A DNA stretch of 64,000 bases from Elusimicrobiota bacterium. GTDB taxonomy: Bacteria > Elusimicrobiota > Endomicrobiia > CG1-02-37-114 > JAHJSO01. A program made the position numbers and the translations under genes. Below, in pieces: positions 24,783 to 55,605 of this stretch. Below the pieces are notes generated by a model that was not told the DNA's origin, searched no databases, and was given only the letters and a program-made list of their open reading frames with translations. The stretch covers positions 7,025 through 71,024 of the forward strand of contig JBDRQF010000011.1 in the NCBI GenBank assembly GCA_043826435.1, written 5' to 3'. Every line of letters begins with the position of its first letter. The stretch's first letter is position 1.

Positions 24783-26316
24783 ATTTGTTTATCCGTTTGG
24801 TTTTTATTGTCTTTTCTGATTTCCTGTAGATTTTATATAATTTGCCTTCATATATTAGTTGGTAGTCGTTGTTCAGGGTAAACTGAATATGCGAGTATAT
24901 TTCCGGCCTGTTATTCCGGATGTTATTAAAGTCCTTTTCGTATGTTTCGTCAACTATAATGACGTCGGTTTTTTGTTTACTGTAATATCCGAGGGAATGG
25001 TCAGCCACCACCCTGTCAAAACCCAGTAAGAACGATGTTTCCCATGGGGCATTAATAGTGTCTGTGGGCGATAAAATTTGCAGGACCTTGTTTATATCGG
25101 GCAGGAATTTTTTATGATACTCGTTCCTTTTAAATCTGTATATGTTGACCCCCGAAGACAGCATTACTACAGGAATAAGTGCAAGCGTAAAAATCTGCCT
25201 GGGGATGGTTTTTTCTTTGAGACGGCTGCGAAAGATTACGACACATGCTGCGAATATAGGGACTATATGGACCAGATAAGTCGGCCATTTATGGCTGGAT
25301 AAAAACATTAATAGAAAAAAATAGATTGCCGTGAGGAAGAAAATCATGCGGGAGGGATAATTATCCTTTTTTCTGAGTATTAAATAACCGAGAGAGATGA
25401 ATGAAAAAAAGTAGACAACAAGTATAAATAATAATGCACGGGAATGAACTGAAAAATCTGACCCGAGCCCATATGCAAACAGATATCTCCATCTTATTTC
25501 ATTATAGATTGTTGTTATACTGAAACCACTTTGTGTCGGATAGTGTAATCCGAATACAATTCCAAAAAATTGATGATAAAAAGCGTCTAAATCCTTAAGA
25601 ATATACCATCCCCATGACAAAGCCCCGATAAAGTATGGAATGGCGGATATTAAAATATGTTTTATTTTTATTTTTTTAATGTCATGATATAAAACTAAAA
25701 ACAAAAGTGCTGCAAAGCCAAGAATTCCGTTTGGATGGGTTAACCCGGACATAACAATCAGAGTGTTTGATAGCAGGAGTGCTTTTGGAAGCGATCTTTC
25801 TCTTAGAGCCATATAACCCGCCCACGAGCAGAAGGCAAGGGAGGCGCACATAATGTCAAATACCCTGCCGCTTGCCGAGAAACGGGTGTATATAAAATCA
25901 ACGCTTATTAAAACCAGAGCGAACAAAGAGGTTTGTCCGTCAACATTGAATTTGTTAAGAATTATATACCATGCAAACAGTCCGATTAAACCCCAGAAAA
26001 CAGCAAGAGATCGCAGTTGAAACAAACCAATGCCAAACAATTTAAACCAGCAGGCCTGTGCTATTATAGATAATGGTGGTTGTCCATAATAATACTTGTC
26101 CAGTCCCTTCCACCATGGATTATATTCTGCAGGGACAACTGATTTTACCTGCGGGATTCCCATAAACCCGTTTCTTAGTAAATTTACAGCAACATTTGAT
26201 TGTATCATTTCATCTTCGTGTGGTCTTTGTACATATATCAAACCGGCAGCAAAAAACAAGTATAATATTAAAGGTATTAACAAAAATAATCTGGGATTAG
26301 TTGGATTATTAAACAT
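24766..26316 (-). CDS. GT-C family membrane glycosyltransferase paralog (PMT_2/ArnT-like)
   Basis: 516 aa and polytopic. RPHEDEMIQSNVAVNL is a strong PMT/ArnT-type DE loop motif. Confidence 0.65.
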   Translation of the reverse strand: MFNNPTNPRLFLLIPLILYLFFAAGLIYVQRPHEDEMIQSNVAVNLLRNGFMGIPQVKSVVPAEYNPWWKGLDKYYYGQPPLSIIAQACWFKLFGIGLFQLRSLAVFWGLIGLFAWYIILNKFNVDGQTSLFALVLISVDFIYTRFSASGRVFDIMCASLAFCSWAGYMALRERSLPKALLLSNTLIVMSGLTHPNGILGFAALLFLVLYHDIKKIKIKHILISAIPYFIGALSWGWYILKDLDAFYHQFFGIVFGLHYPTQSGFSITTIYNEIRWRYLFAYGLGSDFSVHSRALLFILVVYFFSFISLGYLILRKKDNYPSRMIFFLTAIYFFLLMFLSSHKWPTYLVHIVPIFAACVVIFRSRLKEKTIPRQIFTLALIPVVMLSSGVNIYRFKRNEYHKKFLPDINKVLQILSPTDTINAPWETSFLLGFDRVVADHSLGYYSKQKTDVIIVDETYEKDFNNIRNNRPEIYSHIQFTLNNDYQLIYEGKLYKIYRKSEKTIKTKRINKYDKKY

Positions 26317-26320
26317 TGGT

Positions 26321-27811
26321 TCAATCGGATTGTTTTTTAAAATTAAACACGAATAATATTTTTATAAATAAATAGAGTAAATTTATACCGAGAGAAGCGA
26401 GATAGAATAATTCCTTTAGGTTAATAAACCATCTGTCTGAGAGTAGGAACCATCCTACCGGGCCTTCTTTTTCAAGTAGTAAACGGATTACCCTTTTCGG
26501 CCTCAGCGAGAAAAAGAGATTTATTTTGAGCACGTCGTTCACCAGTTCTTTTTCCGTAGTTGTCCGCGGGACATAAGACAGCCGTGAACTTTTGAAGGGT
26601 GATTCCACCAGTGAACCGCAGGCATTGAGATTCTCCCAGTTTTTACCGGTATTCAGCCGGTTTTCTCTTTTTGCAATCTCATAGAGTTCCGTGCCGGGAT
26701 AGGGCGTGGCGTTGTTGAACCTGACATAATTCAGGTCCAGTTGTTTTGCAAGTTTATATGACTGCCATCTTTCTTCTTTCGTTTCAGTCGGCAGTCCTAA
26801 AATAAATGTAGCCGAGACCTGGAATCCGAATTTTTTTACCAGTTTAACCGCTTGTATGTTTTTCTCTACCGTCTCTCCCTTGTTTATCAATTTCATCAAC
26901 CGTTCGGAGGCAGTTTCTATGCCGAAATTAATCGTCCTGAAACCGGCCATTTTCAAATATTCAAGGATTTCCGGATTGATAGAATCGCCTCGCGTTTGAC
27001 AATCAAATTTCGCTTTCAGGTAAAACTTATTTTTGTGCATCAACGTGCATAATTTTTTTGTTCTGTTTTTGTTTACTGTGAAATCATCGTCAACGAACAA
27101 TATATATTTTTGTTTATATTTGTTTATCAACAAATCAAGCAGTTCAATTACTTTTTCAGGATTTATATAGCGATATGTTCTGCCGGAAATACATCTTTGA
27201 CTGCAGAAAATACAATTGTACGGACACCCCCTGGATGTGGCTATAAACCCAAAATTATATTTACCCAGATGTTTTTCAAACAGATGGTAAGGAAATGGTG
27301 GCAGGGAATCCATTGCGGGCAATCTGGCGTCCGGGTTGTGGATTAAGTTACCATGCCTGTCGTTGAATGAAATCCCCTGTATTTTTGAGTAGTCCTCTTT
27401 TCTTTTTATTGACTCATATAGCAAATTAAGGGTTTCTTCCCCTTCCCTTCTGACTACTATATCTACATAACCGGTTTTAAGCGCCTCTTCCGATAATACG
27501 GTCGGGTGTATTCCCCCCAGTATAATCTTTGAATCAGGATATTTTTCCTTTAGCATTTTTGCAAGTTCATATGCTCTGGAAATACCGGCAGTAAGGCATG
27601 AAATACCGAATATGTATGGAGCGACGGTGTCTCTTGAATATTCATCTATAAGTCCGGAATTAATTGGCGTAATGTTTTCATCTATTATTCCGACCTTTCT
27701 GTTCTGGCTGATTAAATATCCTGCCAGGGAGCCGAGACCGATGGGCACATACATCGGGACATACCGCGCAAACTTACCTAATTTTTGAACCTGAGGGTTT
27801 ATCAGAATCAT
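26321..27811 (-). CDS. B12-binding radical SAM protein (class B radical SAM, methyltransferase-like)
   Basis: N-terminal cobalamin-binding domain (...ILGGIHPT...) followed by SRGCPYNCIFCSQ (a CxxxCxxC radical SAM cluster). 496 aa. Confidence 0.85.
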   Translation of the reverse strand: MILINPQVQKLGKFARYVPMYVPIGLGSLAGYLISQNRKVGIIDENITPINSGLIDEYSRDTVAPYIFGISCLTAGISRAYELAKMLKEKYPDSKIILGGIHPTVLSEEALKTGYVDIVVRREGEETLNLLYESIKRKEDYSKIQGISFNDRHGNLIHNPDARLPAMDSLPPFPYHLFEKHLGKYNFGFIATSRGCPYNCIFCSQRCISGRTYRYINPEKVIELLDLLINKYKQKYILFVDDDFTVNKNRTKKLCTLMHKNKFYLKAKFDCQTRGDSINPEILEYLKMAGFRTINFGIETASERLMKLINKGETVEKNIQAVKLVKKFGFQVSATFILGLPTETKEERWQSYKLAKQLDLNYVRFNNATPYPGTELYEIAKRENRLNTGKNWENLNACGSLVESPFKSSRLSYVPRTTTEKELVNDVLKINLFFSLRPKRVIRLLLEKEGPVGWFLLSDRWFINLKELFYLASLGINLLYLFIKILFVFNFKKQSD

Positions 27812-27826: not shown

Positions 27827-28378
27827 TTAGCCGCCCGGGTCTAATTTTAAAAAATCCTTCAGGAATTTGGACATCACCGCTATGTAATGCCCCTTTTTTG
27901 TATTCTTATATCGCCCGTTTTCTATGACAATACAATTTGATTCAAGTATGTGATGCAGCCGTCTTTTAAAAACATCATCAGGCGGGTATTTGTGTTTCAT
28001 TTCCTCGTAAGAAAGTTTTTTTGCGGGAGATGTTTCAAATTCAATCATCATCCTGCCGGTAATGGTGCGGTCAATGAAAAAATAAAACTGGCAGTAGCCA
28101 ATGAATAAAAAGACATACAGGATGTACCCCGTTATAAAATTAAGTATTTTTGAAACAGACAAAACAACTCTGGAAGTCAAAAGCAGGTCGGCGGGTATTA
28201 GCATAAGGATGTTTACCGGGATTAGAATGTATGCTAATACATAGCCGAGCGTGAACGCATAAAAGGTGATTTTTATTGTTCTGAATCTCTCTTTTATATT
28301 GAATAGATGGAAAATAATTATGTGTATTATAAAAAACAGAATAAAACATAAAAAGCCAATAATTAATCCTTTTAACAT
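27827..28378 (-). CDS. Small membrane protein with C-terminal winged-helix-like domain (paralog A)
   Basis: 183 aa with three N-terminal hydrophobic helices, then a charged cytoplasmic domain (SYEEMKHKYPPDDVFKRRLHHILESNCIVIENGRYKNTKKG). About 45% identical to the adjacent gene. Confidence 0.6.
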   Translation of the reverse strand: MLKGLIIGFLCFILFFIIHIIIFHLFNIKERFRTIKITFYAFTLGYVLAYILIPVNILMLIPADLLLTSRVVLSVSKILNFITGYILYVFLFIGYCQFYFFIDRTITGRMMIEFETSPAKKLSYEEMKHKYPPDDVFKRRLHHILESNCIVIENGRYKNTKKGHYIAVMSKFLKDFLKLDPGG

Positions 28379-28390: not shown

Positions 28391-28945
28391 TTAACCGCCG
28401 GGCCAGACATTCAGAATTTTCTTTGATATTCCGAACAAATTTGCTAAACAGCGTCCCTTTGTCGTATTTCTGTAGTAGCCCGCCTCTTCAACGATGCATC
28501 CGGATTCAACCATGTGTCTGAAGCGTCTTCTATAAATCTCGTCGGGCGAATAGACATTTTTCAGTTCTTCAAAAGAGACGCGTTTTTCCGGATGTCTTTC
28601 CAGTTCAACCATTACTCTGAGAGAGAGAGAACGATCAATTATAAAATAAAACTCGCCGTAAGACATAAAAAGAAAAACATACAGCATAAAACCGGTTACA
28701 AAGTTGAGAACTTTTGATATGGCCAGGACTGTTTCGGATGTCTGCATCGGGTCGGCGGGTATTAGCATAAGGATATCCCCGGAAATTAAAGTATAAAGGA
28801 CGATATAAAGAGGGATGAGTGAAAGGAAAATATTTCTTATTACCCTGAACCTTTTTTCAAATGGACCCCGATAGTGGAATACAATGGAGTGCAATATAAG
28901 GAACAACATGAAACAAAAAAAACCTATCAGGAGTCCTTTTAGCAT
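28391..28945 (-). CDS. Small membrane protein with C-terminal winged-helix-like domain (paralog B)
   Basis: 184 aa, same architecture as paralog A (MLKGLLIGFFCF..., ...SFEELKNVYSPDEIYRRRFRHMVESGCIVEEAGYYRNTTKG). A tandem duplicate. Confidence 0.6.
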   Translation of the reverse strand: MLKGLLIGFFCFMLFLILHSIVFHYRGPFEKRFRVIRNIFLSLIPLYIVLYTLISGDILMLIPADPMQTSETVLAISKVLNFVTGFMLYVFLFMSYGEFYFIIDRSLSLRVMVELERHPEKRVSFEELKNVYSPDEIYRRRFRHMVESGCIVEEAGYYRNTTKGRCLANLFGISKKILNVWPGG

Positions 28946-28961: not shown

Positions 28962-30494
28962 TTACTTCATAAAACTCTGAATTAATTTTATCATGTCAGA
29001 GGGTTGTATGGTTTCTTTATTGCCTAAATACTGTACCGCGAGGGATCCTGCGCAGTTGCCTACAAAGGCAACTATTTCCGGATGGACATTTAAATAGGTT
29101 AAGGGGGATGTAAGAGCCAGGACGGCGTCCCCTGCACCGATCGTGTCAACGATTTTCCATGCCAATGCGGGGACCCTGTATAAACTTCCTTTACTGTAAT
29201 ATAAAGAGCCTTCATGTCCCAGTGTTGTATTTATTTTGGGGCATTTGAGTTGTAGGGCGATTTTTTTAACCATATCTTCTAAATTGCCGTGCTGGTCATG
29301 GCATGCCAGACGGATTTCTTCGTGGTCTAAAACAACATAGTCAGCCCTCGAGTATTTGGTTATCAGATTATATCCTAAATTTGCACTATTGGATTGAGCC
29401 ATCACCACCAGGTAAGGAGAGTTGTTGCAGAGAATATTAACAATTCCATTTGTTATGAACCCATGTCCGAAATCAGCGGAAATTACCATGTCATATCCGC
29501 CCACCATTTTGTTGAATAATTTTATTACATCCTTTTCAAGTTCAGGGTTTATGGGCTGTTCATTTAGAGAGCATATTTCAAACATTTTTTGATTAAAGAC
29601 GCGTTCAAGGAAGCGGGATTTTATTATTGTGGATCCATCATCGCGATAACATGGAAATAATTTTATATTTTTTTTCAGACGCGTCCTGATAAAATATTCC
29701 TTGGTATTTTGTTTACCTAACAGCCCTATAAGACCCACTTCCTTTACAAATCCCGCGATGTGATTTGCCACACACAGGGCGCCACCCGGGTATGTCTCCC
29801 TATGAGTAAATTTTGATGAAACAACCGTTGATTTTGATGCCCGCTGAAACAGATGACAAAAATTATATTCATCAATGATGGGTTCTCCTATGATTAACAC
29901 TTTAAGTTTTTTTAACCCTTCAATTGCATCCAAAACATCCTCAAGGGTGAACTTCTGCGTAAAACCAGAAAGGAAGTGTTTTATTTTGTCAGGCAGGATG
30001 TCAAAATGGTCTTTAAGGAGTTTTGTTGAGGAGAATATCTCTTCGTCCGTAAAAATAAGTTTCCCGCCGATTGATTTGACCACGGATGCTTCCCGGTCAA
30101 GTCGCCCGGTTGCATCGCTTTTTACCGATTCAAAATCGCTACCTTTGACATATAAATCGGGCCTGATGGTTTTCAATGTTTCTTCGGCAGTGGGCCATTG
30201 ATTTATAGCGACATAATCCGCGCAGTCAAGAGCAGCGATTGAGTCCGCCCTTTGTTTTTCGTTAAAGACAGGTCTGCCCGGCCCTCTCTTTATATAACAG
30301 TCGGGCGTGATGGTTACAACCAGAACGTCCCCCATCTTTTTTGCCGCCTGCAGATGTTTAATATGGCCGAAATGCATTAAATCAAAACAGCCGTGGCAAA
30401 GGACAATTTTTTTGCCCTGTTTTTTGATTTTAGTTATTATTTTAGAAAGGGTATTTAAATCTTTGATTTTGGTTGACGGTTCTATTTTGCTCAC
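28962..30494 (-). CDS. Bifunctional sugar-phosphate nucleotidyltransferase (RfaE-domain-II/cytidylyltransferase-like) / PfkB-family sugar kinase, HldE-like with reversed domain order
   Basis: N-terminus: IVLCHGCFDLMHFGHIKHLQAAKKMGDVLVVTITPD (HxGH nucleotidyltransferase, RfaE domain II type). C-terminus: PfkB signature DTIGAGDAVLA. 510 aa. Confidence 0.8.
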   Translation of the reverse strand: MSKIEPSTKIKDLNTLSKIITKIKKQGKKIVLCHGCFDLMHFGHIKHLQAAKKMGDVLVVTITPDCYIKRGPGRPVFNEKQRADSIAALDCADYVAINQWPTAEETLKTIRPDLYVKGSDFESVKSDATGRLDREASVVKSIGGKLIFTDEEIFSSTKLLKDHFDILPDKIKHFLSGFTQKFTLEDVLDAIEGLKKLKVLIIGEPIIDEYNFCHLFQRASKSTVVSSKFTHRETYPGGALCVANHIAGFVKEVGLIGLLGKQNTKEYFIRTRLKKNIKLFPCYRDDGSTIIKSRFLERVFNQKMFEICSLNEQPINPELEKDVIKLFNKMVGGYDMVISADFGHGFITNGIVNILCNNSPYLVVMAQSNSANLGYNLITKYSRADYVVLDHEEIRLACHDQHGNLEDMVKKIALQLKCPKINTTLGHEGSLYYSKGSLYRVPALAWKIVDTIGAGDAVLALTSPLTYLNVHPEIVAFVGNCAGSLAVQYLGNKETIQPSDMIKLIQSFMK

Positions 30495-30539
30495 TATTTT
30501 TCTCCTTTTATTAAATTATACATTTTTTATGTTTGTAAA

Positions 30540-31643
30540 TCAAATAAAATTTATATGTATTGGGGGTTCACCTTTTGGTTTTTCCAAGGTGGTATTTCCG
30601 TGTTTTAAGTCCCACAAAAACTCATTTACCTTATGTTGAAGGCAAAGAGTCCCACACATTGTTTTAGCATCAAAATTATCTAAAGCAATAAAATTCATAA
30701 CCTCCCAATAGCGTTCGCTGCGCCATATCTCTTTAAAAGATTTATCTACAATGTTACCAATGTGATATCTTTTATACTTTCTGTTGAACAACATACCACA
30801 AGGAGCAACAAGTCCTGAACCAGAGAATTGGGTAATAAAAGGTGGGCCATAACATTGGGAATATTTACGTTTCCCTTCACTCAAGATTTTTGACCATTTC
30901 ACTTTCACTAAGTAGCCCTCATCAGAATATCCTTCCGCTTCTTTTAAAACATTAACCAATTCAAAATATTTAGAGTAATTTACTCCTAAACTACCTTTTT
31001 CATCATCACTGCAATGCTTAATGATTGAATAATCAACTCCCAGTTCCTTGCCAAGTTTAGCAAAAGGTATAATCTGGCCGACAAATTGAGGGAGTAAAAC
31101 CATCTGTAAACCCAAAGTAACAGAAAGATTTTTTTCTTTTTTTATTCTTACCGCTTCTTTTATAGTGTTAAGTACTTTATAAAAATGTTCTTCCTTGCAT
31201 CCCATTATTTGAGAATAACGGAGTGGCTCCGCAGCAGAAATATTAAATCTAAGATATGTTAAACAAGGCAAAATTTCTTCTAATTTTTCATCTTTTAATA
31301 AATAGCCGTTTGTTCCCAATGCCATATCCAGTCCATTTGCTTTGCCTCTTAATATCGCATCATATAAATGTGGCGAACAAGTGCTTTCGCCGTCACTGAC
31401 AAAACTTATTGCTTTCACACCAATTTCAGTAGCATCGTCAAGGAATCTGAAAATTACATCTTTTGTCATTCTCTTTTCGTCGTTTGTTTGTAGTTGGCCA
31501 TAGCAATAAATACATCTGTAGGTGCACCTTCTGGTCAGTGAACAATCTATGGTTATAGGAGCAATTCTTTCGCCTCTAAGCCATGCCTCTATTCTATCTG
31601 TATGCCAGAGCATTTTATGACCATCTAAGATTAATTCGTCCAT
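30540..31643 (-). CDS. Radical SAM domain protein (no B12 domain), sugar-modifying candidate
   Basis: CSLTRRCTYRCIYCYG CxxxCxxC motif near the N-terminus, plus C-terminal extra cysteines (possible auxiliary cluster). 367 aa. Confidence 0.8.
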   Translation of the reverse strand: MDELILDGHKMLWHTDRIEAWLRGERIAPITIDCSLTRRCTYRCIYCYGQLQTNDEKRMTKDVIFRFLDDATEIGVKAISFVSDGESTCSPHLYDAILRGKANGLDMALGTNGYLLKDEKLEEILPCLTYLRFNISAAEPLRYSQIMGCKEEHFYKVLNTIKEAVRIKKEKNLSVTLGLQMVLLPQFVGQIIPFAKLGKELGVDYSIIKHCSDDEKGSLGVNYSKYFELVNVLKEAEGYSDEGYLVKVKWSKILSEGKRKYSQCYGPPFITQFSGSGLVAPCGMLFNRKYKRYHIGNIVDKSFKEIWRSERYWEVMNFIALDNFDAKTMCGTLCLQHKVNEFLWDLKHGNTTLEKPKGEPPIHINFI

Positions 31644-31649
31644 ATGTAT

Positions 31650-32429
31650 TTATCCTTTATTTAATGCTTGATAACGCTTTGCCGAGACGGAGTCAGGATT
31701 AATAGTTTGTCTTTCTTTCTTAAAATAAATGTGTGTAAACAATAGAAAAAATCCCTTTATTACTTTATAAAAAGAATGAAAGGACAATGCTTTTGACTTA
31801 CCCTCCTTTCTTAGTTTTAATCTGTAAGGAACTTCTGCAAAAAGATATTTTCTCTTGATTAATCTTATCAAGATATCAGTTTGATAAAAAAAACCGCTAT
31901 TCCTATGTTCCATCTCACTTAATAATGATTTTCTGTAAAGAACAGTTCCATTAGTATAGTTTAGCGAGACAAAAAAGGTATTATTTATAACAAGTTTATA
32001 AACAAACGAAATAAAGTTTCTAAAAAAAGAACGTGTCCCTTTATTAAAAACAAAAGGAATAACTATATCAACATTTTCTAGAAGGTAAATATAACGAAAA
32101 ATTTCTCCGGGCTCATTTTCATTATCCCCCGGTAACATACAAACTATATTTCCTTTTGCATTATCTACTCCATCCCAGAAAGAAGCGCCAAGTCCTTTTG
32201 GTTTGTTATGGTTAATCATTCTAACTTTTTCAGGATTTTCTTCCATTTTGCGTTGTATAATATTAGGAGTTGTATCAGAACTCCCGTCATTAATTACAAC
32301 TATTTCGCCTTTTATCCCAAACTCCCCAAACGCAGATAGAGTATCATCAATAGATGAGGAAATATTTTTTTCTTCATTGAGCGCGGGCATTATAATAGTT
32401 AAAAATATGCTATCGGTTTTATTCGCCAT
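31650..32429 (-). CDS. Glycosyltransferase family 2 (DPM-synthase-like)
   Basis: LTIIMPALNEEKNI...IVVINDGSSDTT DXD-region GT-A signature. 259 aa. Confidence 0.8.
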   Translation of the reverse strand: MANKTDSIFLTIIMPALNEEKNISSSIDDTLSAFGEFGIKGEIVVINDGSSDTTPNIIQRKMEENPEKVRMINHNKPKGLGASFWDGVDNAKGNIVCMLPGDNENEPGEIFRYIYLLENVDIVIPFVFNKGTRSFFRNFISFVYKLVINNTFFVSLNYTNGTVLYRKSLLSEMEHRNSGFFYQTDILIRLIKRKYLFAEVPYRLKLRKEGKSKALSFHSFYKVIKGFFLLFTHIYFKKERQTINPDSVSAKRYQALNKG

Positions 32430-32435
32430 TTTCAG

Positions 32436-33485
32436 TTATTTTTTTAAAAGTTTTTTTATTTCAAAAACTATATTTTCAACATTTGGATAATAAATTTTTT
32501 CTAAAACAGAACTCGCGGGTGTAGGAATATCGGGCAGTGCTATTCTTGATACAGGTGCTTTTAGAAATTTCAGAGCATTTTCCATCAAAAATGAAGAAAT
32601 TTCAGAACTAATTCCGCAAAATTTATAACCAAAATCTAAAACAATCGCCCTTTGCGTTTTTTTAACTGAACTTAGAATTAAATCATAATCAAGAGGCTTT
32701 ATTGTTCGCAAATCTACGATTTCAATATTTATCCCTTCGTCCTCAAGTCTTTTTGCTGCTTCTATTGCTAAGATTGTCATAAATGAATTGGTGATTAAAG
32801 TTAGATCTTTTCCCTCTTTTCTTAATACAGCTTTTCCTAAGGGTATTAAGTAAGGATCCTTTGGGACTATATCCTTATAGTCATAAAGCCATCGGTGTTC
32901 AATAAAAATTACAGGTGACTCATCCAGAATGCTTGACAGTAGCAATCCTTTTACATCATAAGCAGTGGAAGGCATAACGACTTTAAGTCCGGGGACATGG
33001 GTAAATAAAGATTGAAGAGGTTGAGAATGTTGTGCAGCAGACCCCCAGCCACCACCTATTATTGCCCTTACTACAATGGGAACAGATGCTTTCCCACCAA
33101 ACATATATTTCCACTTTGCAGCATGGTTTATTAACTGGTCCATTGATAATAGCATGAAGTCAGTCCTCATGTGAACCAAGACGGGTCTCAACCCTGCCAG
33201 AGAAGACCCAATAGCAATTCCTGTTAAAGTATTTTCACATAAGGGCGTATCAAACACCCTATCACTGCCAAATTCTTTATGAAGATTTAAAGTTGTTCCA
33301 AAAGTTCCGCCGGGGTCATCAACTCCTTCTCCAAATATAAAAACCCTCTTATCTTCTTTTAATGCTAGATACAATGCTTCTTTAATAGCTTCCCTGTAAC
33401 TGATTTCCCTCTCTTTTTTAGACCCTGTTTTCCGAGTGGAAATTTTTATTTTAGATAAATCTATTGGTGCTTTATCCCAGGACAT
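32436..33485 (-). CDS. TPP-dependent 2-oxoacid dehydrogenase E1 beta subunit / transketolase C-terminal-like
   Basis: 349 aa with the ...FGEGVDDPGGTFGTT...FDTPLCENT... motif typical of PDH/acetoin-DH E1-beta. Paired with an E1-alpha just upstream. Confidence 0.85.
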   Translation of the reverse strand: MSWDKAPIDLSKIKISTRKTGSKKEREISYREAIKEALYLALKEDKRVFIFGEGVDDPGGTFGTTLNLHKEFGSDRVFDTPLCENTLTGIAIGSSLAGLRPVLVHMRTDFMLLSMDQLINHAAKWKYMFGGKASVPIVVRAIIGGGWGSAAQHSQPLQSLFTHVPGLKVVMPSTAYDVKGLLLSSILDESPVIFIEHRWLYDYKDIVPKDPYLIPLGKAVLRKEGKDLTLITNSFMTILAIEAAKRLEDEGINIEIVDLRTIKPLDYDLILSSVKKTQRAIVLDFGYKFCGISSEISSFLMENALKFLKAPVSRIALPDIPTPASSVLEKIYYPNVENIVFEIKKLLKK

Positions 33486-33487
33486 AG

Positions 33488-34447
33488 TCAGTAAACATCC
33501 TTATATAGATCTTTTTCTTGAGGATAAGGGCTTTTCAGAGCAAAATCCAGCGCTTCCTCTATCTCTTTTTCTACTTCTCCGTCTATCTGTTTAAGGTCTT
33601 TTTCTTTAAGTAGATTATTTTCCAGGATATATCTTTTGAATTTTTCCAGGGGGCATTTCTTTGTCCATTTTTCAACTTCTTCTTTTTGTCTGAATCCTTT
33701 CTCTACATCTGTTTCAGGACCAACATGAGTTCTCCATCTATATGTTCTTGTTTCAATCAAAGAAGGACCTGAACCATTTCGTGTTCTCGCTATAAATTTT
33801 TTGGCTGTTTTGTGTACCTCAAATACATCATTTCCGTCAATGCAAATACCTGGCATGGAGAAAAAATCCGCTATCTTATAAATGTCAGTATTCACCTGTC
33901 TAACTTTTTGAAGAGAGTTTGTTGCATAAAAATTATTTTCACATACAAATATTATAGGCAACTTCTTTAACGAAGAAAAATTAAGAGATTCATAAAAAAC
34001 ACCTTCATCAACTGCCCCATCGCCAAAAAATGCTATAACAATTCTATTATCTTTCTTTATTTTAGAAGCCAATGCCGATCCAACTGCAATAGGTATTCCC
34101 CCGCCCACAATTGCAGAAGTTCCCAATATAGAATGTTTAACAGATATCATATGCATTGAACCACCTTTTCCGGACGAACAGCCAGTTTTTTTTCCATAAA
34201 GTTCTGCGAATAAAGGTTTTAAATCCACACCTTTGGCAATTAAATGACCGTGGTTTCTATGATTACTGAAGACATAATCTTCTTTTTTTAAGTTGATGCA
34301 AAAACCCACAGCAATAGCTTCTTGACCTATATATAAGTGAACAGGGGTGCACATATCCTGTTTTGGGTAAATTTGAATTATCTTCTCTTCAAATTTTCTA
34401 ATTTTTGTAAGGTAGTAATAAATTTTTTTTAATGTATCAGATGTCAT
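33488..34447 (-). CDS. TPP-dependent E1 alpha subunit (thiamine diphosphate-binding)
   Basis: GDGAVDEGVFYESLNFSSLKKLPIIFVCENNFYA TPP-binding GDG...N motif. 319 aa. Confidence 0.85.
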   Translation of the reverse strand: MTSDTLKKIYYYLTKIRKFEEKIIQIYPKQDMCTPVHLYIGQEAIAVGFCINLKKEDYVFSNHRNHGHLIAKGVDLKPLFAELYGKKTGCSSGKGGSMHMISVKHSILGTSAIVGGGIPIAVGSALASKIKKDNRIVIAFFGDGAVDEGVFYESLNFSSLKKLPIIFVCENNFYATNSLQKVRQVNTDIYKIADFFSMPGICIDGNDVFEVHKTAKKFIARTRNGSGPSLIETRTYRWRTHVGPETDVEKGFRQKEEVEKWTKKCPLEKFKRYILENNLLKEKDLKQIDGEVEKEIEEALDFALKSPYPQEKDLYKDVY

Positions 34448-34467
34448 ATCTCTTTATTATATAAAAT

Positions 34468-35583
34468 CTAACCGGAAAAATCAAGATAAAATTTTCTTAT
34501 TTTATCAACGATATAGTCCAGTTGTTTTTCTGTCAATTCAGGATAAACGGGCAAACTTAAAATCTCTCCCGCCAGACGTTCGGTTACGGGAAAAGCGCCT
34601 TTTTTATATCCTAACGGTTTAGCCGCCCTCTGCATATGTATGGGCAGCGGATAGTGGATTTTTGTTTCAATCCCGTTTTTTGCAAGGTAGGTTTGAAGCC
34701 GGCCCCTCTTTTCTGCCCGGATTATAAAAGTATGGTAAACACATTTTTCATGGCTGTTTTCTTCCGGTGTTTTTACGAATCCATTCATGTCAGATAAATT
34801 TTTTATATAGTATTTTGCAACCTTTCTTCTGCCTTCAATCCATCTGTCCAGATATTTAAACTTAACATTGAGTATTGCCGCCTGCATAGTATCAAGCCGG
34901 CTGTTATACCCCCACTGCGGAGATTCATTTCTGTTTTTTAATCCGATGTTTCTGAGTCGGATTAATTTTTGGTATAGTTTTTTATCGCCTGTCGTGATGA
35001 AACCCCCGTCACCGCAGGCATTCAGTGTTTTTAATGGATGTAAACTGAAACAGCCGAATGTCCCGAATGAACCCACTCTCTTTCCTCTGTATTCTGCGCC
35101 GAGTGACTGTGCAGCATCTTCAATAATATACAGGTTGTATTTTTTTGCTGTTTCCATAATCGGGTGCATGTCCGCTGTCTTTCCTGTTAAATGCACCAGA
35201 AGGATTGCTTTTGTTTTCCGGGTGATTTTTTCAGATATAAGGTCCGGGTCAATATTCATATCTTCCCGGACATCTACAAAAACCGGCTTTAGCCCTGCTG
35301 TGATTATGCTTGAGGTTGTAGAGAGAAAGGAGTTTGGGACCGTAATAACCTCATCGTCATCTTTTAACCCTAACGATTTCATCGCAAGAAAGAGTGCATC
35401 AGTTCCTGAGTTGACCCCGACAGCGTATTTTGTATCGCAGTAGTGCGCCGCCCTTTGTTCAAACAGCGAGACCTCTTTGCCGAGAATAAAGTCGGCCCTT
35501 TCAAGGGTTTTTGAAACCGCCGCGAGTATCTCTCTTTTCAGTTTTTTATGCTGGGCTTTCAGGTTTATGTAAGGTATTTTCAT
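34468..35583 (-). CDS. DegT/DnrJ/EryC1/StrS family PLP-dependent sugar aminotransferase (copy 1)
   Basis: 371 aa aspartate-aminotransferase-fold family. FSLHPLKTLNACGDGGFITT contains the conserved lysine region. The ...GVNSGTDALFLA... N-terminus is typical. Confidence 0.85.
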   Translation of the reverse strand: MKIPYINLKAQHKKLKREILAAVSKTLERADFILGKEVSLFEQRAAHYCDTKYAVGVNSGTDALFLAMKSLGLKDDDEVITVPNSFLSTTSSIITAGLKPVFVDVREDMNIDPDLISEKITRKTKAILLVHLTGKTADMHPIMETAKKYNLYIIEDAAQSLGAEYRGKRVGSFGTFGCFSLHPLKTLNACGDGGFITTGDKKLYQKLIRLRNIGLKNRNESPQWGYNSRLDTMQAAILNVKFKYLDRWIEGRRKVAKYYIKNLSDMNGFVKTPEENSHEKCVYHTFIIRAEKRGRLQTYLAKNGIETKIHYPLPIHMQRAAKPLGYKKGAFPVTERLAGEILSLPVYPELTEKQLDYIVDKIRKFYLDFSG

Positions 35584-35630
35584 AAAAATTTTTTGGCGGA
35601 TATATTGGCCGTTTACAACGGATATTTTAC

Positions 35631-36629
35631 CTATTTCAACCCTATGGATTTCATCTTCCTGACATTGTAATAATTTATGTCCTGCCAGTCAACAATCCTT
35701 TTTGTTTCAAATGCAATTTTAATGTCGCTGATTGCGTCCCTTATTGTTTTTGCAGGAATAAGGCCCAGTTCTTTTTTGATTTTTTCGGAAGATATGTGGT
35801 ATGACCTGTTGTCTTTTGTCGGGACGGTCTCTATCGGTACGTGGGCACTAACCGTTTCTTTTACCATATTAGCAAGATCCATTACAGTATAATTTTCATA
35901 GCCGGCATTATATATTTTGCCGGCAATTTTTTCCTTTGGGACTTCTAATAATTTCACATAATAGTCGGTTATATCTTCAATATGAATATTTGGCCGTTTC
36001 TGTCCGCCGCCGAAGACAGTAATTTTGTTTGTGTTTAAAGCATTTGCGGTGAGGATATTAACTGTCAGGTCAAGCCGCATCCTCGGCGAAAATCCACACA
36101 CAGTAGCAGGTCTGATTACAGTGCAGGTGAACTCAGGGGTCTGGTTTTTCAGCAGGAATTCCTCGCACAGCACTTTGTATTTTGAGTAGTCAGTAAGCGG
36201 CTCAAGAGGCAGTGTCTCTGTTACATTCTCTTCTTTTTTTACGCCGTACACGCTTGAACTAGAAGCAAAAACGAATAGTCCGACCCCCGATTTTTTTGAA
36301 ACATCAACCAGATCAAGGAATGCATCGTAATTTATGGATTTTGAAAGTAACGGGTCAAGTTCATAACTTGGGTCGTTGGAAATGCACGCAAGATGTATAA
36401 CCGCGTCCGTTCCCGGTATTATTTTTTCAAGCAGAGCCCTGTCCCGGATGTCTCCCTTTACCTGTTGCAGGCCCGGGTGATTCTTTACTTCGTCCAGGAC
36501 GTGTTTGCCGTATATGTACAAATCAATGACTTTTACCCTGTACCCTTTTTTCAGGAGTTTGGGGACAAGGACGCTGCCGACGTATCCCGCCCCGCCCGTT
36601 ACAAGTATATTTTTTTGTTTATGGTTCAT
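35631..36629 (-). CDS. NAD-dependent epimerase/dehydratase (extended SDR)
   Basis: ILVTGGAGYVGSVLV Rossmann motif and YSKYK catalytic motif. Start moved to MNHKQKNIL to limit overlap with the upstream gene. Confidence 0.85.
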   Translation of the reverse strand: MNHKQKNILVTGGAGYVGSVLVPKLLKKGYRVKVIDLYIYGKHVLDEVKNHPGLQQVKGDIRDRALLEKIIPGTDAVIHLACISNDPSYELDPLLSKSINYDAFLDLVDVSKKSGVGLFVFASSSSVYGVKKEENVTETLPLEPLTDYSKYKVLCEEFLLKNQTPEFTCTVIRPATVCGFSPRMRLDLTVNILTANALNTNKITVFGGGQKRPNIHIEDITDYYVKLLEVPKEKIAGKIYNAGYENYTVMDLANMVKETVSAHVPIETVPTKDNRSYHISSEKIKKELGLIPAKTIRDAISDIKIAFETKRIVDWQDINYYNVRKMKSIGLK

Positions 36630-37740
36630 TATAGGCACCCTTTCCGTAAAATTCTCTGACCTTCCCGATGACGTATTCAACCTGTTGCGGGCTCAGGTGC
36701 TGATGCACGGGCAGCGATATTATTGACTCCGCCTGTTTTTCAGCCACGGGGAAGTCGCCCTTTTTATAACCGAACTGTTTGCTCGCCTCCTGCAGGTGCA
36801 GGGGAATGGGGTAGTGGATTTTTGCTTCAATTTCATTTTTTATGAGATATAAAAGAAGTTCGTCCCTTTTTTCTACCTGAATGATATAGATGTGGAATAC
36901 GTTTTTGAACCTTTTATCTCTCGGTGGAATTGCGATAAATTCCTTTAAGTTGGCAAATGCGTCATCATATTTTTGTGCATTCCGGATCCTTTTGATTGTG
37001 ATGTCCTCAACCTGGTCAATAAGGTGCAGGCCGACGATCGCCTGTATTGTATCCAGACGGCTGTTGTATCCGAAGATTTCTATCTCATCCCTGTTTTTAA
37101 GACCGTGGTTCCGCAACAGTATAAGTTTGTTTCTTATTTCTTCCGAATCGGTTATCGCAAGCCCCGCATCCCCCCACACGTTTAAGTTTTTTAGCGGGTG
37201 CAAACTGTAACCCGCGGCAAGCCCGAACGTGCCCACGGGTTTGTCGTTGATTTTGGCGCCTATTGCCTGGCAGGCGTCCTCAATAACGAGAAGATTATGC
37301 TTTCCGGCTATTTTCATTATTTCAGGCATGTCTGCCGGGTTGCCGGAGTAGTGGACGGGCATAATTACTTTTGTTTTTTGGGTAATGGCTGATTCTATTT
37401 TTGAGACATCTATGTTGTAGTCGTCCTGCACATCAACAAATACCGGCCTCGCACCGGCGGCGACTATCGCACCGACGGTTGCTATGAAAGTATCCGGGGC
37501 GGTTATCACCTCGTCTCCCGGCATGACGCCAGCGGTTTTCAGGGACAGGAAGAGCGCATCCGTGCCCGAATTTACTCCAACGGCGTATTTTGTCCCGCAC
37601 AAAACGGCGAATTTCTTCTCAAACTCTTCAACCTCGGCGCCCAGGGTGAAATCACATTTTTTGAGCTGGTTTTTTATCGCCTCAAGAATTTTCTCCGGGC
37701 GAGCAAACTGGTCAACCAGATAAGAATAAGGTACTTTCAT
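36619..37740 (-). CDS. DegT-family PLP-dependent sugar aminotransferase (copy 2)
   Basis: 373 aa. The GVNSGTDALFLS...YSLHPLKNLNVWGDAGLAIT motif is typical of DegT. Confidence 0.85.
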   Translation of the reverse strand: MKVPYSYLVDQFARPEKILEAIKNQLKKCDFTLGAEVEEFEKKFAVLCGTKYAVGVNSGTDALFLSLKTAGVMPGDEVITAPDTFIATVGAIVAAGARPVFVDVQDDYNIDVSKIESAITQKTKVIMPVHYSGNPADMPEIMKIAGKHNLLVIEDACQAIGAKINDKPVGTFGLAAGYSLHPLKNLNVWGDAGLAITDSEEIRNKLILLRNHGLKNRDEIEIFGYNSRLDTIQAIVGLHLIDQVEDITIKRIRNAQKYDDAFANLKEFIAIPPRDKRFKNVFHIYIIQVEKRDELLLYLIKNEIEAKIHYPIPLHLQEASKQFGYKKGDFPVAEKQAESIISLPVHQHLSPQQVEYVIGKVREFYGKGAYNEP

Positions 37741-39440
37741 TTTAATTTTTTGTAAATTATTATTTCAGGATTAGGTATTAACCAATCGTGCGGCGGATAG
37801 TTTTTCCTGAAAACTATTCCCATGAACGATGCCTGCCTGTTGAACCGCGCAACCTCTTCAAATCTATCAGTGTTGAACATTATGCTTTGTAAAATTTCTG
37901 CGCCCCGCAAAACTTTGTCTTTTTCCTGTTCCTGTTTTGAAAAATAATTAGCAAGAAAATCAGGATAATAAATATAGTCCCTGTACTCAAATTCAGACAG
38001 GACGACGTAGTCCGCTTCTTTTTTGATTGAGTCAAGCCCAAGGACCGCCTCGCTCAAAGCGGATTGTATATCCCCGCCCATCAGGAGATTGTAAGGCGGG
38101 TTGTATTGCCGCAGGATGCCAGGCGTCCAGAAATAACTCCTGGGTATGGCGACCTTTGCCGATTCCGGAACGTTATTCTTAATCCATTCCGACGTTTCTT
38201 CCCTTGTGTTTTTTGAGACGTATAAATTCAGGTTTGCGAGTGAATAGACGGAGGAATAAGCAAATATAAAAACAAGGGCCAGCAGGGTTATGACTGCCGG
38301 AACAGATTTTTTCACGATTTTTGAAGAGAGCATCGCCCCGGCCGTTCTTGCAGCGAACAGAACAAAGAAGGGTATAACTGGCAGGGTGTACCATGCCGCC
38401 TGGTTTTTGGGCCGGGTGATGACAAAGTAAATAATAATTCCTGAAATCAAAAAGAGCATGTCATAGGGCGCTCCGGATTGGCTCCTACTTTTTATAGAGG
38501 ATAACTGCTTTGCCGTTATGTAAACAAAACCCGCCAGCCCCCCTGCAAGTAGCGGCCAGCCCATTGCATGCGGGAGGTAGTATCTTATGTAACTTAACCA
38601 CCCCGGGCCGAAAAGCGCAAATTCAACAGGATGGGTGGTCCCTCCGGCAAACGCAAAATTCATTTTCATGTAATACCAGAAAGTAGGGAAGTCAAAAATG
38701 GAATAAGGACAGCCGATTAAAAACCCAGCGGCAGATGATGCAATTAATATCCAGAGGTTCTTGTTTTTAACGGAGTCGCCGCGGATGAAATGCGCCAGTA
38801 CCGGGACTATCACGTAAACGCCGGCGCTGAGTTTTGTCGCCGTGGCAAGCCCGACGCAAATGCCCGCAAGGACGTAGTACTTTGTCCGGTTTCTGCCGGA
38901 AATTATCATAACTGAAAACAGTGCCCCGAGCAAAGCGAAAAACAACATGATAACGTCGGGCCGGACATAGAATGAATTTATGATATGCCCCGCGGTTATG
39001 CACAATAGCCCCGCAGAAATAAGCCCCGTGGTACTGTTGTATGCCTTTTTGGCTATAAGATAAATCAGCAGTATGCTCAGCGTCCCGAAGATTATTGAAA
39101 TCAACCGGCCGATAACGTAGAGTTTGTCCGCCTCGTGAAGGTTTGCAATGAGGAACTCCCTTGTGACAGGGCTCACCATGCCCGCTACCTGGCTTATCTT
39201 CAGGAAAAACCCGAGAATATAAACGCTGAAACCGCCCCAGAGGAACGCCCTCTTCGGGCTGAAATCAAGTTTTGAAGGGACCATGCGTTCAAGCGAGTAA
39301 TAGGAGAGCGGTTCGTCGGGATTGTACGTCGTTAAGGCGAGGTTTTTACTCGGGAGGCCGAATCTTATCGGCGCCACTCTTAAAAAAAAACCTGCCAGCA
39401 GGATAAGTATCAACAAAAAAATGTGCGTCTTATCCTTCAT
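37737..39440 (-). CDS. GT-C family membrane glycosyltransferase (PMT_2/ArnT-like)
   Basis: 567 aa and polytopic. YNPDEPLSYYSLE is a first-loop DE motif. Confidence 0.65.
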   Translation of the reverse strand: MKDKTHIFLLILILLAGFFLRVAPIRFGLPSKNLALTTYNPDEPLSYYSLERMVPSKLDFSPKRAFLWGGFSVYILGFFLKISQVAGMVSPVTREFLIANLHEADKLYVIGRLISIIFGTLSILLIYLIAKKAYNSTTGLISAGLLCITAGHIINSFYVRPDVIMLFFALLGALFSVMIISGRNRTKYYVLAGICVGLATATKLSAGVYVIVPVLAHFIRGDSVKNKNLWILIASSAAGFLIGCPYSIFDFPTFWYYMKMNFAFAGGTTHPVEFALFGPGWLSYIRYYLPHAMGWPLLAGGLAGFVYITAKQLSSIKSRSQSGAPYDMLFLISGIIIYFVITRPKNQAAWYTLPVIPFFVLFAARTAGAMLSSKIVKKSVPAVITLLALVFIFAYSSVYSLANLNLYVSKNTREETSEWIKNNVPESAKVAIPRSYFWTPGILRQYNPPYNLLMGGDIQSALSEAVLGLDSIKKEADYVVLSEFEYRDYIYYPDFLANYFSKQEQEKDKVLRGAEILQSIMFNTDRFEEVARFNRQASFMGIVFRKNYPPHDWLIPNPEIIIYKKLK

Positions 39441-40545
39441 ATTTTTTCAGCGCGTCCGCGACGTATTCAATTTCCTGTTCCGTTATACCGGGAAACATCG
39501 GCAGCGAGAGGATTTCATCCGACAACCTTTCAGCCACCGGTAAATCCCCCTTCTTATAACCGAGGCCGGCAAAGACCGGGCTCAGGTGCAACGGCATGGG
39601 ATAGTGGATGCCGGCGCCGATGTCATTCTTGGACAGGTATTCCCTGAGTTTGTCCCTGTTTTTTGTCCGTATCACAAAGAGATGGTATACGTGCCTTGCA
39701 TGCTCCGACTCGGCAGGGAGTATAAAACCGGCTCCTGAAAGCATCTTCCTGTAAATCCCTGCCGCCGTCCTCCTCTGTGAATTCCATTCGTCCAGAGAAT
39801 GCAATTTTATAGACAGAACAATTGCTTGCAGTGAATCAAGTCGGGCGTTAAATCCGAGCATGGTATGTTCACTTTTTTTCTTTTGTCCCAGGTCACGCAG
39901 GGCATAGACCTCTTCCGCAATTGATTTGTCATTTGTTACGACGGCGCCCGCATCCCCGAGTGCCCCGAGGTTCTTCCCGGGATAAAAACTAAAACACCCT
40001 GCCCTGCCAATTGTCCCTGACTTTATCCAGTTTTTGTCTACAAGGCATTCGGCTCCGTGCGACTGGCAAGCGTCTTCTATTATGTCAACCTTGTATTCGT
40101 TTGCAATCCCGAGCAGGCCCGCCATATTGCATGGCTGCCCGTAAAGATGAACGGGGATTATCGCCTTTATCTTTTGCTTTTGCATGGCCTCACGGACTTT
40201 CTGCAAATCAATATTATACGTATTCTCTTCAACGTCAACAAACACAGGCCTTGCGCCCGTATATGCGACTGCAAGGGCGGTTGATATGAAAGTGTTGGCA
40301 GGCACGATAACACTATCGCCGCTGCCTGCTGAAACGGATCTGAGTGCAAGTTGAAGCGCATCCGTCCCCGAGCTTATGCCGACGCAGTACTTCGTCCCGC
40401 AGTATTCCGCAAACTGTTTTTCAAAAGCGGCGACTTCACCCGAGAGGATAAAATGACTCTGCTGTATCGCCGTATCAATGGCTGAAACAATCTCGCCCCT
40501 TATGGCATTGTGTTGCCTGGACAAATCAACGAACGGTACTTTCAT
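39430..40545 (-). CDS. DegT-family PLP-dependent sugar aminotransferase (copy 3)
   Basis: 371 aa with GISSGTDALQLAL...FSFYPGKNLGALGDAGAVVT motifs. Confidence 0.85.
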   Translation of the reverse strand: MKVPFVDLSRQHNAIRGEIVSAIDTAIQQSHFILSGEVAAFEKQFAEYCGTKYCVGISSGTDALQLALRSVSAGSGDSVIVPANTFISTALAVAYTGARPVFVDVEENTYNIDLQKVREAMQKQKIKAIIPVHLYGQPCNMAGLLGIANEYKVDIIEDACQSHGAECLVDKNWIKSGTIGRAGCFSFYPGKNLGALGDAGAVVTNDKSIAEEVYALRDLGQKKKSEHTMLGFNARLDSLQAIVLSIKLHSLDEWNSQRRTAAGIYRKMLSGAGFILPAESEHARHVYHLFVIRTKNRDKLREYLSKNDIGAGIHYPMPLHLSPVFAGLGYKKGDLPVAERLSDEILSLPMFPGITEQEIEYVADALKKYEG

Positions 40546-40597
40546 AAATATGTCCTTCCCTTCCTTTCCTGCGCCCTTTCTTCGGGTGCCTTTCCTT

Positions 40598-41749: not shown

Positions 41750-41845
41750 ATCCCTTTGTTTTCTGCGTTTGTATCAAGCGGTAATTATACCATATTTAAT
41801 GAAAATATTCAAATTTTCTGCGCTGCGTATATTTTTTGCGACGGT

Positions 41846-42550: not shown

Positions 42551-42565
42551 TTGACAAAATGCTAA

Positions 42566-55543: not shown

Positions 55544-55605
55544 CATATATCCATTTATCTTTTTTCGCAAAAAATTACCTCGTTAATCTATTTTGTCAGG
55601 GTGGT

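Follow-up and report, generated by a model that had tools for sequence, protein, structure and literature searches.

A pyruvate dehydrogenase E1-like pair in a radical-SAM and putative lipid-carrier glycosylation cassette of an Elusimicrobiota bacterium: a candidate two-carbon transferase for surface sugars

The nearest known kind of system to the one analysed here is the pyruvate dehydrogenase (PDH) E1-like pair of actinomycete deoxysugar pathways. It has been proposed, or shown genetically, that such pairs take a two-carbon (C2) unit from pyruvate and place it on a keto-sugar: Plm8/Plm9 equip 2,6-dideoxy- and 2,3,6-trideoxyhexoses with a two-carbon chain that derives from pyruvate, and AviB1/B2 and EvdU5/EvdS3 have been assigned the same C2-transfer role for eurekanate (PMC4802897; PMC10338323). 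The only biochemically characterised example cited is YerE of yersiniose A synthesis, which forms a C2 branch from pyruvate on a CDP-4-keto-sugar in a thiamine diphosphate (ThDP)-dependent reaction (PMC4802897; PMC10338323). Here we analyse an E1-alpha/E1-beta pair that lies among glycan genes on 64,000 nucleotides of DNA from an Elusimicrobiota bacterium (GenBank assembly GCA_043826435.1, contig JBDRQF010000011.1, positions 7,025 to 71,024 of the forward strand; this whole stretch is called the window, and its numbering is used throughout). Judging from sequence, the pair and its partners most likely build a branched or chain-extended surface sugar. More specifically, we see about an even chance that the pair acts on its own as a ThDP carboligase within a cassette for lipid-carrier glycosylation, not as part of a 2-oxoacid dehydrogenase, and that it would place a C2 unit onto an activated sugar.

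Like the actinomycete pairs (AviB1/AviB2 for eurekanate, Plm8/Plm9 for paulomycose, EvdU5/EvdS3 and the kosinostatin pair), the pair in the window is a split E1 without E2/E3 among sugar-tailoring genes. A preliminary description of this DNA, which predicted a C-branched or otherwise unusual sugar, had invoked PDH-E1-like pairs that add C2 branches to keto-sugars, and Plm8/9, AviB1/B2 and EvdU5/EvdS3 are indeed a real precedent. It had also named YerE. YerE belongs to a different ThDP family and serves as a functional analogue only: it is a flavoprotein made of one chain and resembles acetolactate synthase (TPP_enzyme_N/M/C in Pfam terms), whereas the window pair consists of E1_dh plus Transket_pyr/Transketolase_C domains and has only a marginal partial match to TPP_enzyme_C. 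The setting of the actinomycete pairs is also different. They occur in antibiotic clusters of aerobes, beside dehydratases and decarboxylases of the short-chain dehydrogenase/reductase (SDR) family and Leloir GT1 glycosyltransferases. The present clade, in contrast, belongs to uncultured and mostly anaerobic bacteria, and its neighbours are radical-SAM/SPASM enzymes, a B12-binding radical-SAM enzyme, an ArnC/GtrB-like GT2 glycosyltransferase that is sometimes fused, and a GT-C glycosyltransferase. There is a reasonable chance that its chemistry is more novel than that of the actinomycete-type E1 pairs.

The genes at the centre of the argument are the following.

33488-34447, minus strand: E1-alpha-like ThDP subunit, 319 aa (Pfam E1_dh, 1.4e-76)
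32436-33485, minus strand: E1-beta-like subunit, 349 aa (Pfam Transket_pyr and Transketolase_C, ~1e-36 each)
31650-32429, minus strand: small soluble GT2, 259 aa, between the radical-SAM gene and E1-beta (Pfam Glycos_transf_2)

The E1 pair is almost certainly active, because its catalytic residues are kept. The preliminary description had named a loss of the TPP residues as something that would count against its prediction, and no such loss is seen. In E1-alpha, which shares about 40% identity with human PDHA1, the ThDP motif is whole (GDG at residues 142-144, ENN at 170-172) and the catalytic histidine (human H263) is kept as H241. The best solved relative of E1-beta is the Geobacillus stearothermophilus E1-beta (1w85_B), and all 76 clade members compared keep the equivalents of its Glu59 and His128. 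The pair thus resembles the heterotetrameric PDH E1 (human PDHA1/PDHB and the G. stearothermophilus enzyme) in identity, fold, ThDP motif and catalytic Glu/His. Unlike in PDH E1, there is no E2/E3 nearby, and E1-beta is fused to the GT2 in some lineages. The sequence also differs at specific positions. Where PDHA1 has Y-R-x-H-G-F, the clade has its own invariant H-R-x-H-G-H, which puts a histidine at the position of human Tyr89. At the position of Glu285 of the G. stearothermophilus E1-beta, the window protein has a lysine, and 70 of the 76 clade members have Lys or Arg. Glu285 is a salt-bridge partner of the peripheral subunit-binding domain of E2; other PDHs bind E2 differently, and we give this exchange little weight.

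One could argue that this is an ordinary E1 of a pyruvate or acetoin dehydrogenase whose genes happen to be located in a glycan cluster, with its E2/E3 encoded elsewhere. All canonical catalytic residues are kept, as described above, E1-beta passes the subfamily-level PDH model NF006667 (343 vs 321 bits), and several sources auto-annotate homologues as pyruvate dehydrogenase or acetoin dehydrogenase E1. Yet both subunits miss the NCBIfam equivalog cut-offs: E1-alpha scores 359.4 against 393.85 for the PDH-E1-alpha model TIGR03182, and E1-beta 327.9 against 454 for NF008854. The closest relatives of E1-alpha (70-77% identity) come from metagenome-assembled genomes (MAGs) of Omnitrophota; homologues of 55-60% identity occur in Deltaproteobacteria/Thermodesulfobacteriota, Planctomycetes and Brocadia-like genomes.

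Most of what speaks about function comes from the neighbourhood of these relatives. A pattern-limited scan of 185,579 species genomes (one per species) returned 519 relatives, and our locus comparisons rest on the best 80 of them (51-74% identity). All of these 80 are MAGs of uncultured bacteria and represent at least five phyla (Omnitrophota, Thermodesulfobacteriota, Planctomycetia, Nitrospirae and Dehalococcoidales, together with one Patescibacteria bin). Open reading frames (ORFs) in the loci were labelled by phmmer against the window proteins and the proteins of Pfam-annotated loci. The gene directly upstream of E1-alpha is a radical-SAM/SPASM gene of a 354-aa type (rSAM354) in 58 of 74 loci, a DegT aminotransferase gene in 6 and an SDR gene in 2. 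Directly downstream of E1-beta stands the GT2 gene in 58 of 71 loci. Gene presence was counted in 58 loci of at least 12 kb:

GT2: 54
rSAM354: 52
B12-binding radical SAM (B12-rSAM): 42
GT9-like: 36
290-aa radical SAM (rSAM290): 36
367-aa radical SAM/SPASM (rSAM367): 20
SDR: 15
Nucleotidyltransferase/kinase: 13
SIS: 13
DegT: 11

Two arrangements recur. Type A, found mostly in Thermodesulfobacteriota, runs rSAM354, E1-alpha, E1-beta, GT2, B12-rSAM, a small protein, a GT9-like gene and rSAM290. After the cassette, on the opposite strand, follow a PMT_2 GT-C, a TPR protein of ~570-600 aa and an N_methyl (type IV pilin-like) protein of ~130 aa; this trio is seen in L005 (16580-20426), with equivalents in L022, L037, L045, L048 and L055. 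It is possible that the pilin-like protein of the type-A cassettes in Thermodesulfobacteriota is a glycosylation target. Type B, found in Omnitrophota, Nitrospirae and others, runs (SDR, nucleotidyltransferase/kinase, GmhA-like SIS), rSAM354, E1-alpha, E1-beta and GT2, followed by rSAM367, B12-rSAM, two small proteins with three transmembrane (TM) helices each, and PMT_2.

The homolog context that the preliminary description had proposed to inspect agrees with its expectation: the E1 pair recurs among glycan genes and never beside E2/E3 in the loci scanned. There is no lipoyl-E2 or E3 domain among the ORFs of at least 150 aa in the 64-kb window, all of which were annotated with Pfam, and no E2/E3 within about 10 kb of E1 in the 80 related loci. 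No ORF carries an E2 (DHRxxDG) or E3 (CxNxGCxPxK) signature in the 87 loci scanned, from which the best 80 were drawn, and the ten loci with precomputed Pfam calls hold no 2-oxoacid_dh, Biotin_lipoyl or E3-type reductase.

The GT2 gene is the most informative neighbour of the E1 pair, and it was missing from the preliminary gene list. In L070, a 608-aa ORF (10975-12801) joins a complete E1-beta in frame to a complete GT2. With this fusion as query we found 13 distinct fusion clusters (P0121-P0133) of 63-100% identity. Eleven of them are 594-615 aa long, and two are shorter and partial (449 and 525 aa). They carry Transket_pyr, Transketolase_C and Glycos_transf_2 in Pfam, and their sources are NCBI, JGI, ENA and Logan assemblies that are independent of each other. 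The genomic contexts of P0127 (L091) and P0124 (L092), with the fusion at 10001-11839, hold a full type-B cassette in both cases. Only L070 and P0121-P0133 are counted as fusions. A further E1-beta–GT2 'fusion' in L075 was discounted, as the C-terminus of its E1-beta is lost and it may be a frameshift; an apparent radical SAM–E1-alpha fusion in L046 was rejected because the ORF, in high-GC DNA, is spuriously extended upstream.

Because two proteins that are separate elsewhere are stably fused, E1-beta and the GT2 probably form a functional partnership. We regard this as the strongest single argument that the partner of E1 would be the GT2 and not an E2. It also bears on the conventional-E1 explanation, which is further opposed by the synteny with radical SAM and GT2 across phyla in about 80% of loci, by the lack of E2/E3 within ~10 kb in any locus, by the equivalog cut-offs (for NF008854, 328 vs 454) and by the inheritance of the pair together with GT2 and a radical-SAM gene as a compositional island (see below). 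Hence, a conventional E1 is strongly disfavoured and, in our view, very improbable.

What the GT2 would do can be guessed from its nearest solved relatives, which are ArnC, dolichol-phosphate-mannose synthase (DPMS) and GtrB (E 7e-12 to 9e-8). These three enzymes are polyprenyl-phosphate glycosyltransferases. Their presence among the matches invites a comparison with the Arn and Gtr systems, in which a GT2 (ArnC/GtrB), a flippase (ArnE-F/GtrA) and a GT-C (ArnT/GtrC) act together, with ArnA/ArnB tailoring the sugar via a 4-keto intermediate. As in those systems, a PMT_2 GT-C gene follows in the cassette, a pair of small membrane proteins stands at the position expected for a flippase, and the DegT proteins resemble ArnB. 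Unlike in those systems, the small proteins have no detectable GtrA or ArnE/F homology, no TM helices are predicted in the window GT2, and the E1 and radical-SAM steps have no counterpart.

Put together, these genes suggest the following sequence of steps. In the window, an activated sugar would be made by the nucleotidyltransferase/kinase and tailored by a GalE-like SDR and a DegT aminotransferase, and the carbonyl on this sugar would come from the SDR/aminotransferase route. In most relatives the carbonyl would instead be supplied by the radical-SAM/SPASM enzyme encoded just upstream of E1-alpha, which would work as an oxygen-independent dehydrogenase much as BtrN and anSME do, both of which are radical-SAM dehydrogenases. 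E1 would decarboxylate pyruvate to hydroxyethylidene-ThDP and add the C2 unit to the sugar carbonyl, which would give a C-acetyl or 1-hydroxyethyl branch or, in a reaction like that of 1-deoxyxylulose-5-phosphate synthase (DXS), a two-carbon chain extension. The DegT protein beside E1-alpha could aminate the new ketone. The GT2 would load the E1 product onto polyprenyl phosphate, and the second radical-SAM/SPASM enzyme and the B12-rSAM could make further changes to it, such as C-methylation. Flipping of the lipid-linked sugar may fall to the tandem small membrane proteins, as it does to ArnE/F or GtrA, and the PMT_2 GT-C would pass it to a periplasmic or surface acceptor.

The gene content, the intact motifs, the cross-phylum synteny, the E1-beta–GT2 fusion and the lack of nearby E2/E3 are supported directly by the data. 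It is possible, and here we are more tentative, that they add up to a previously undescribed cross-phylum glycan-tailoring system of uncultured, mostly anaerobic bacteria. In such a system a PDH-E1-derived carboligase would be coupled or fused to a polyprenyl-phosphate glycosyltransferase, a radical-SAM/SPASM enzyme would supply the sugar carbonyl in place of an NAD-dependent SDR, and, together with the B12-rSAM, a branched or chain-extended sugar would be made on a lipid carrier for transfer by a GT-C, with acceptors that may be pilin-like in Thermodesulfobacteriota. Our literature searches found no description of an E1/radical-SAM/glycosyltransferase cassette, and those on Omnitrophota and on the anammox S-layer glycan brought up nothing on it either.

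Several observations weigh against a stand-alone carboligase that serves lipid-carrier glycosylation. Both active-site histidines of reductive acylation (lipoamide) are kept, so by sequence a lipoyl-type acceptor is possible. The match of the GT2 to polyprenyl-phosphate glycosyltransferases is weak (54 bits against a cut-off of 529 for the ArnC model). The adjacent SDR is GalE-like, lacks the TDE motif and is not a recognised keto-sugar generator. A different role for E1 would fit a module of nucleotidyltransferase/kinase, GmhA-like SIS, rSAM354, E1-alpha and E1-beta that recurs in 13 of the 58 loci.

This role would be that of a DXS- or transketolase-like chain extender at the sugar-phosphate stage: a 2-oxoacid unit and an aldose phosphate would give a higher ketose phosphate, which would become an NDP-higher sugar through the GmhA-like isomerase, the kinase and the nucleotidyltransferase. 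E1-alpha has weak DXP_synthase_N matches in Pfam, and 36 of the 58 loci carry a GT9 (heptosyltransferase-like) gene. DXS itself has a homologous ThDP fold, and the condensation of pyruvate-derived hydroxyethyl-ThDP with a sugar aldehyde is the chemistry that is proposed here. However, DXS is a single chain of ~620 aa, and the window E1 proteins score 27-83 bits against a cut-off of 466. Most cassettes (type A) contain neither SIS nor kinase/nucleotidyltransferase, the window has no SIS gene, and the tight coupling and fusion with the GT2 point to a nucleotide-sugar or lipid-linked stage. We consider a chain extender of sugar phosphates unlikely, though not far-fetched.

E1 enzymes generally act on 2-oxoacids, and the heptose/Kdo-type accessory genes (GmhA-like, HldE-like and GT9-like) hint at higher-sugar chemistry. 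One could thus imagine that E1 decarboxylates a sugar alpha-keto acid (an ulosonic acid or keto-uronic intermediate) non-oxidatively and shortens the sugar instead of giving it a C2 unit from pyruvate. No ulosonic-acid synthase of the NeuB/KdsA type and no CMP-transferase was seen in the Pfam-annotated cassettes, however, and the closest solved and curated relatives of the pair are pyruvate-specific E1s. This makes a sugar-shortening decarboxylase quite improbable, and we return to the carboligase as the interpretation under which the other genes of the window are described.

Three genes upstream of E1-alpha set the window apart from most of its relatives.

34468-35583, minus strand: DegT-family sugar aminotransferase, directly upstream of E1-alpha (Pfam DegT_DnrJ_EryC1, 1.5e-111)
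35631-36629, minus strand: GalE-like SDR, 332 aa from ATG, with the ORF reaching to 36680 (Pfam Epimerase)
36619-37740, minus strand: second DegT-family aminotransferase (Pfam DegT_DnrJ_EryC1, 3e-108)

PseC is the best NCBIfam match of the DegT protein at 34468-35583, and the one at 36619-37740 is PseC-like; both stay under the cut-off. The pyridoxal phosphate (PLP) lysine is kept in all three DegT proteins (within SLHPLK in the one at 34468-35583), and with this catalytic lysine present the idea that they are pyridoxamine phosphate-dependent dehydrases of the RfbH/ColD type was rejected. The SDR was described earlier as an epimerase/dehydratase. The TDE triad is the signature of 4,6-dehydratases, and SSSSVYG and YSKYK are GalE-type. 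The window SDR, which is called with the same 332 aa on other assemblies, contains SSSSVYG and YSKYK and has GalE as its best NCBIfam match (117 bits). Being GalE-like and without TDE, it leaves E1 without a classical generator of an NDP-4-keto-6-deoxy sugar next to it. A CDP-glucose-4,6-dehydratase-like SDR is encoded at 56531-57541, 22 kb from E1.

The remaining genes of the cassette lie downstream of the GT2.

30540-31643, minus strand: radical-SAM/SPASM enzyme of the 367-aa type (Pfam Radical_SAM and SPASM; CTYRCIYC motif)
28962-30494, minus strand: nucleotidyltransferase (N-terminal) and PfkB sugar kinase (C-terminal) (Pfam CTP_transf_like and PfkB)
28391-28945, minus strand: small membrane protein 1, three predicted TM helices and a C-terminal domain of ~70 aa (translation, hydropathy)
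27827-28378, minus strand: small membrane protein 2 of the tandem pair, a paralogue 50% identical to the first
26321-27811, minus strand: B12-binding radical-SAM enzyme, 496 aa (Pfam B12-binding and Radical_SAM; CPYNCIFC motif)
24766-26316, minus strand: PMT_2-type GT-C membrane glycosyltransferase, 516 aa, multi-TM (Pfam PMT_2, 26.2 bits against a cut-off of 26.1)

Along the minus strand, from 5' to 3', the cassette runs DegT (37740-36619), GalE-like SDR, DegT, E1-alpha, E1-beta, GT2, rSAM367, nucleotidyltransferase/kinase, the two small 3-TM proteins, B12-rSAM and PMT_2 (26316-24766). This is a type-B cassette in which DegT/SDR/DegT replace the upstream rSAM354 and SIS genes, neither of which is present at the window cassette. 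The seven genes of the preliminary description are all on the minus strand of the window ORF list where it had placed them, with their cofactor motifs intact: GDG...ENN in E1-alpha, CTYRCIYC in the radical SAM, HFGH and DTIGAGD in the nucleotidyltransferase/kinase, and the PLP lysines of the DegT proteins. Of the partners of E1 that it had named, DegT, SDR and nucleotidyltransferase/kinase are accessory across the family (11-15 of the 58 loci); the conserved partners are the radical-SAM/SPASM enzyme and the GT2.

Nevertheless, the gene set that the preliminary description had singled out (nucleotidyltransferase/kinase, SDR, two DegT, E1 and radical SAM) recurs in part elsewhere. A DegT or SDR gene directly precedes E1-alpha in L011, L019, L025, L030, L061, L067, L072 and L083. 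The set is complete in L019 and L025, L061 lacks the radical-SAM/SPASM gene, and L093, on a 3.3-Mb contig, lacks the GT2: its order is nucleotidyltransferase, PfkB, SDR, E1-alpha, E1-beta, an unassigned gene, radical SAM/SPASM, DegT and DegT. Just downstream of the L093 cassette (16226-20334) are a glycyl-radical enzyme (PFL-like plus Gly_radical) and an activating radical-SAM enzyme. Because the DegT/SDR substitution recurs in other loci, the gene set of the window is a coherent recurrent minority variant and not a coincidence.

Base composition divides the cassette further. The GC content at third codon positions (GC3) is 0.244 in E1-alpha, 0.254 in E1-beta, 0.235 in the GT2 and 0.283 in rSAM367, so that 30540-34447 forms a sharp compositional island with GC3 of 0.24-0.28. 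The rest of the cassette, including the DegT gene at 34468-35583 and the SDR, has GC3 of 0.38-0.46, and the surrounding cluster 0.51-0.61; the DegT gene at 36619-37740 (0.545) matches the cluster and not the island. Since GC3 sets these four genes apart, E1-alpha, E1-beta, GT2 and rSAM367 behave as a unit with its own history, in agreement with the cross-phylum synteny. The composition suggests that the four-gene block was gained recently as a unit.

The individual genes fit this picture to different degrees. rSAM367 shares 77-85% identity with its counterpart after the GT2 in L001-L003 and is more conserved than E1; its identity to the 354-aa paralogue that precedes E1-alpha in most loci is about 30%. 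The nucleotidyltransferase/kinase is 43% identical to its orthologue in L001/L002, where it stands beside the GmhA-like SIS gene. Unlike HldE, it has the reversed domain order, and it misses the HldE models (151 vs 521 for NF008454, 110 vs 181.5 for domain II, 106 vs 345 for domain I). The B12-rSAM is 59% identical to the cassette gene of L003, and among solved structures it comes closest to an unnamed radical-SAM protein (9ccb), OxsB, AprD4 and TokK. It has a C-terminal hydrophobic tail in the window; only 4 of 49 cassette B12-rSAMs do, and a membrane anchor as a general feature was rejected. The PMT_2 gene of L091 occupies a position equal to that of 24766-26316.

The small 3-TM proteins have N-terminal TM helices and a conserved C-terminal domain that ends in PGG, and they have no Pfam or NCBIfam match. 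The family has 622 representatives in a library of 1.84 billion proteins, and an orthologue is annotated in an 'Elusimicrobia' Rifle MAG. Its members are paired in tandem in nearly all cassettes that have them, with a single copy in L066, near the end of the locus. An AlphaFold2 model, built on a four-sequence alignment, is poor (mean pLDDT 61, C-terminal domain below 50). NCBIfam and Pfam gave no curated family-level identity for the radical-SAM, B12-rSAM, GT9-like, rSAM290 or small proteins.

The cassette is embedded in a much larger cluster. The first part of the window (0.7-11.5 kb) encodes housekeeping functions (fatty-acid synthesis, RNase III, acetate kinase, NDK). Positions 11634-63994 (>50 kb) form a single continuous minus-strand glycan super-cluster with 8 PMT_2 GT-C, 7 small GT2 and 5 B12-radical-SAM genes, in addition to GT4 genes, several methyltransferases, an AsnB-type amidotransferase, a Wzx-like flippase and a WecA-like initiating transferase. 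GT2/GT-C pairs are unusually dense in it. Between 23223 and 41602 the intergenic gaps are at most 52 nt or the genes overlap, so it is plausible that this gene run is an operon-like unit. Searches of the window for ThDP or cobalamin riboswitches and for tRNAs returned no Rfam family and no tRNA.

Other parts of the super-cluster show features of their own. A second low-GC island (GC 0.32-0.34) at 52000-56000 holds a B12-radical-SAM gene (53972-55570), a Glyco_trans_1_2 gene (53067-53975) and methyltransferases. The genes at 39430-43219 encode a UDP-GlcNAc-3-dehydrogenase-like GFO oxidoreductase, a DegT aminotransferase, a NeuD/PglB-type acetyltransferase and a small GT2, which suggests a 3-acetamido-sugar module; the same GFO/DegT/acetyltransferase trio stands directly upstream of rSAM354–E1-alpha in L057. 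With 34-37% identity, the B12-radical-SAM protein of 44522-45958 stands nearer to the type-A cassette B12-rSAM (L005/L006) than the one in the E1 cassette (26321-27811) does. Its gene adjoins PMT_2, an acetyltransferase and a GT2 with 30% identity to the cassette GT2, and the region may hold the lipid-carrier module a second time, without E1. In the ORF list, 20854-21669 and 21542-23245 share 128 nt; for the downstream methyltransferase ORF, the TTG start has probably been set too far upstream.

If our interpretation is correct, then the synthesis of cell-surface glycans has taken over a component of central metabolism, both stably and widely (519 species-level genomes in the pattern-limited scan). 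The partner set of radical SAM, B12-radical SAM, lipid-carrier GT2 and GT-C is without a characterised counterpart. The E1-beta–GT2 fusion is a simple and specific genomic marker for the system, as well as a handle for heterologous reconstitution. Automatic annotation routinely labels these genes 'pyruvate dehydrogenase E1' or 'acetoin dehydrogenase', and metabolic reconstructions of such anaerobes that rely on the labels would be distorted. To our knowledge, the envelopes of Omnitrophota, Thermodesulfobacteriota, Planctomycetia and Nitrospirae are almost unstudied. If the pair does what we propose, a new class of C-branched or higher-carbon sugars would be predicted in these four groups.

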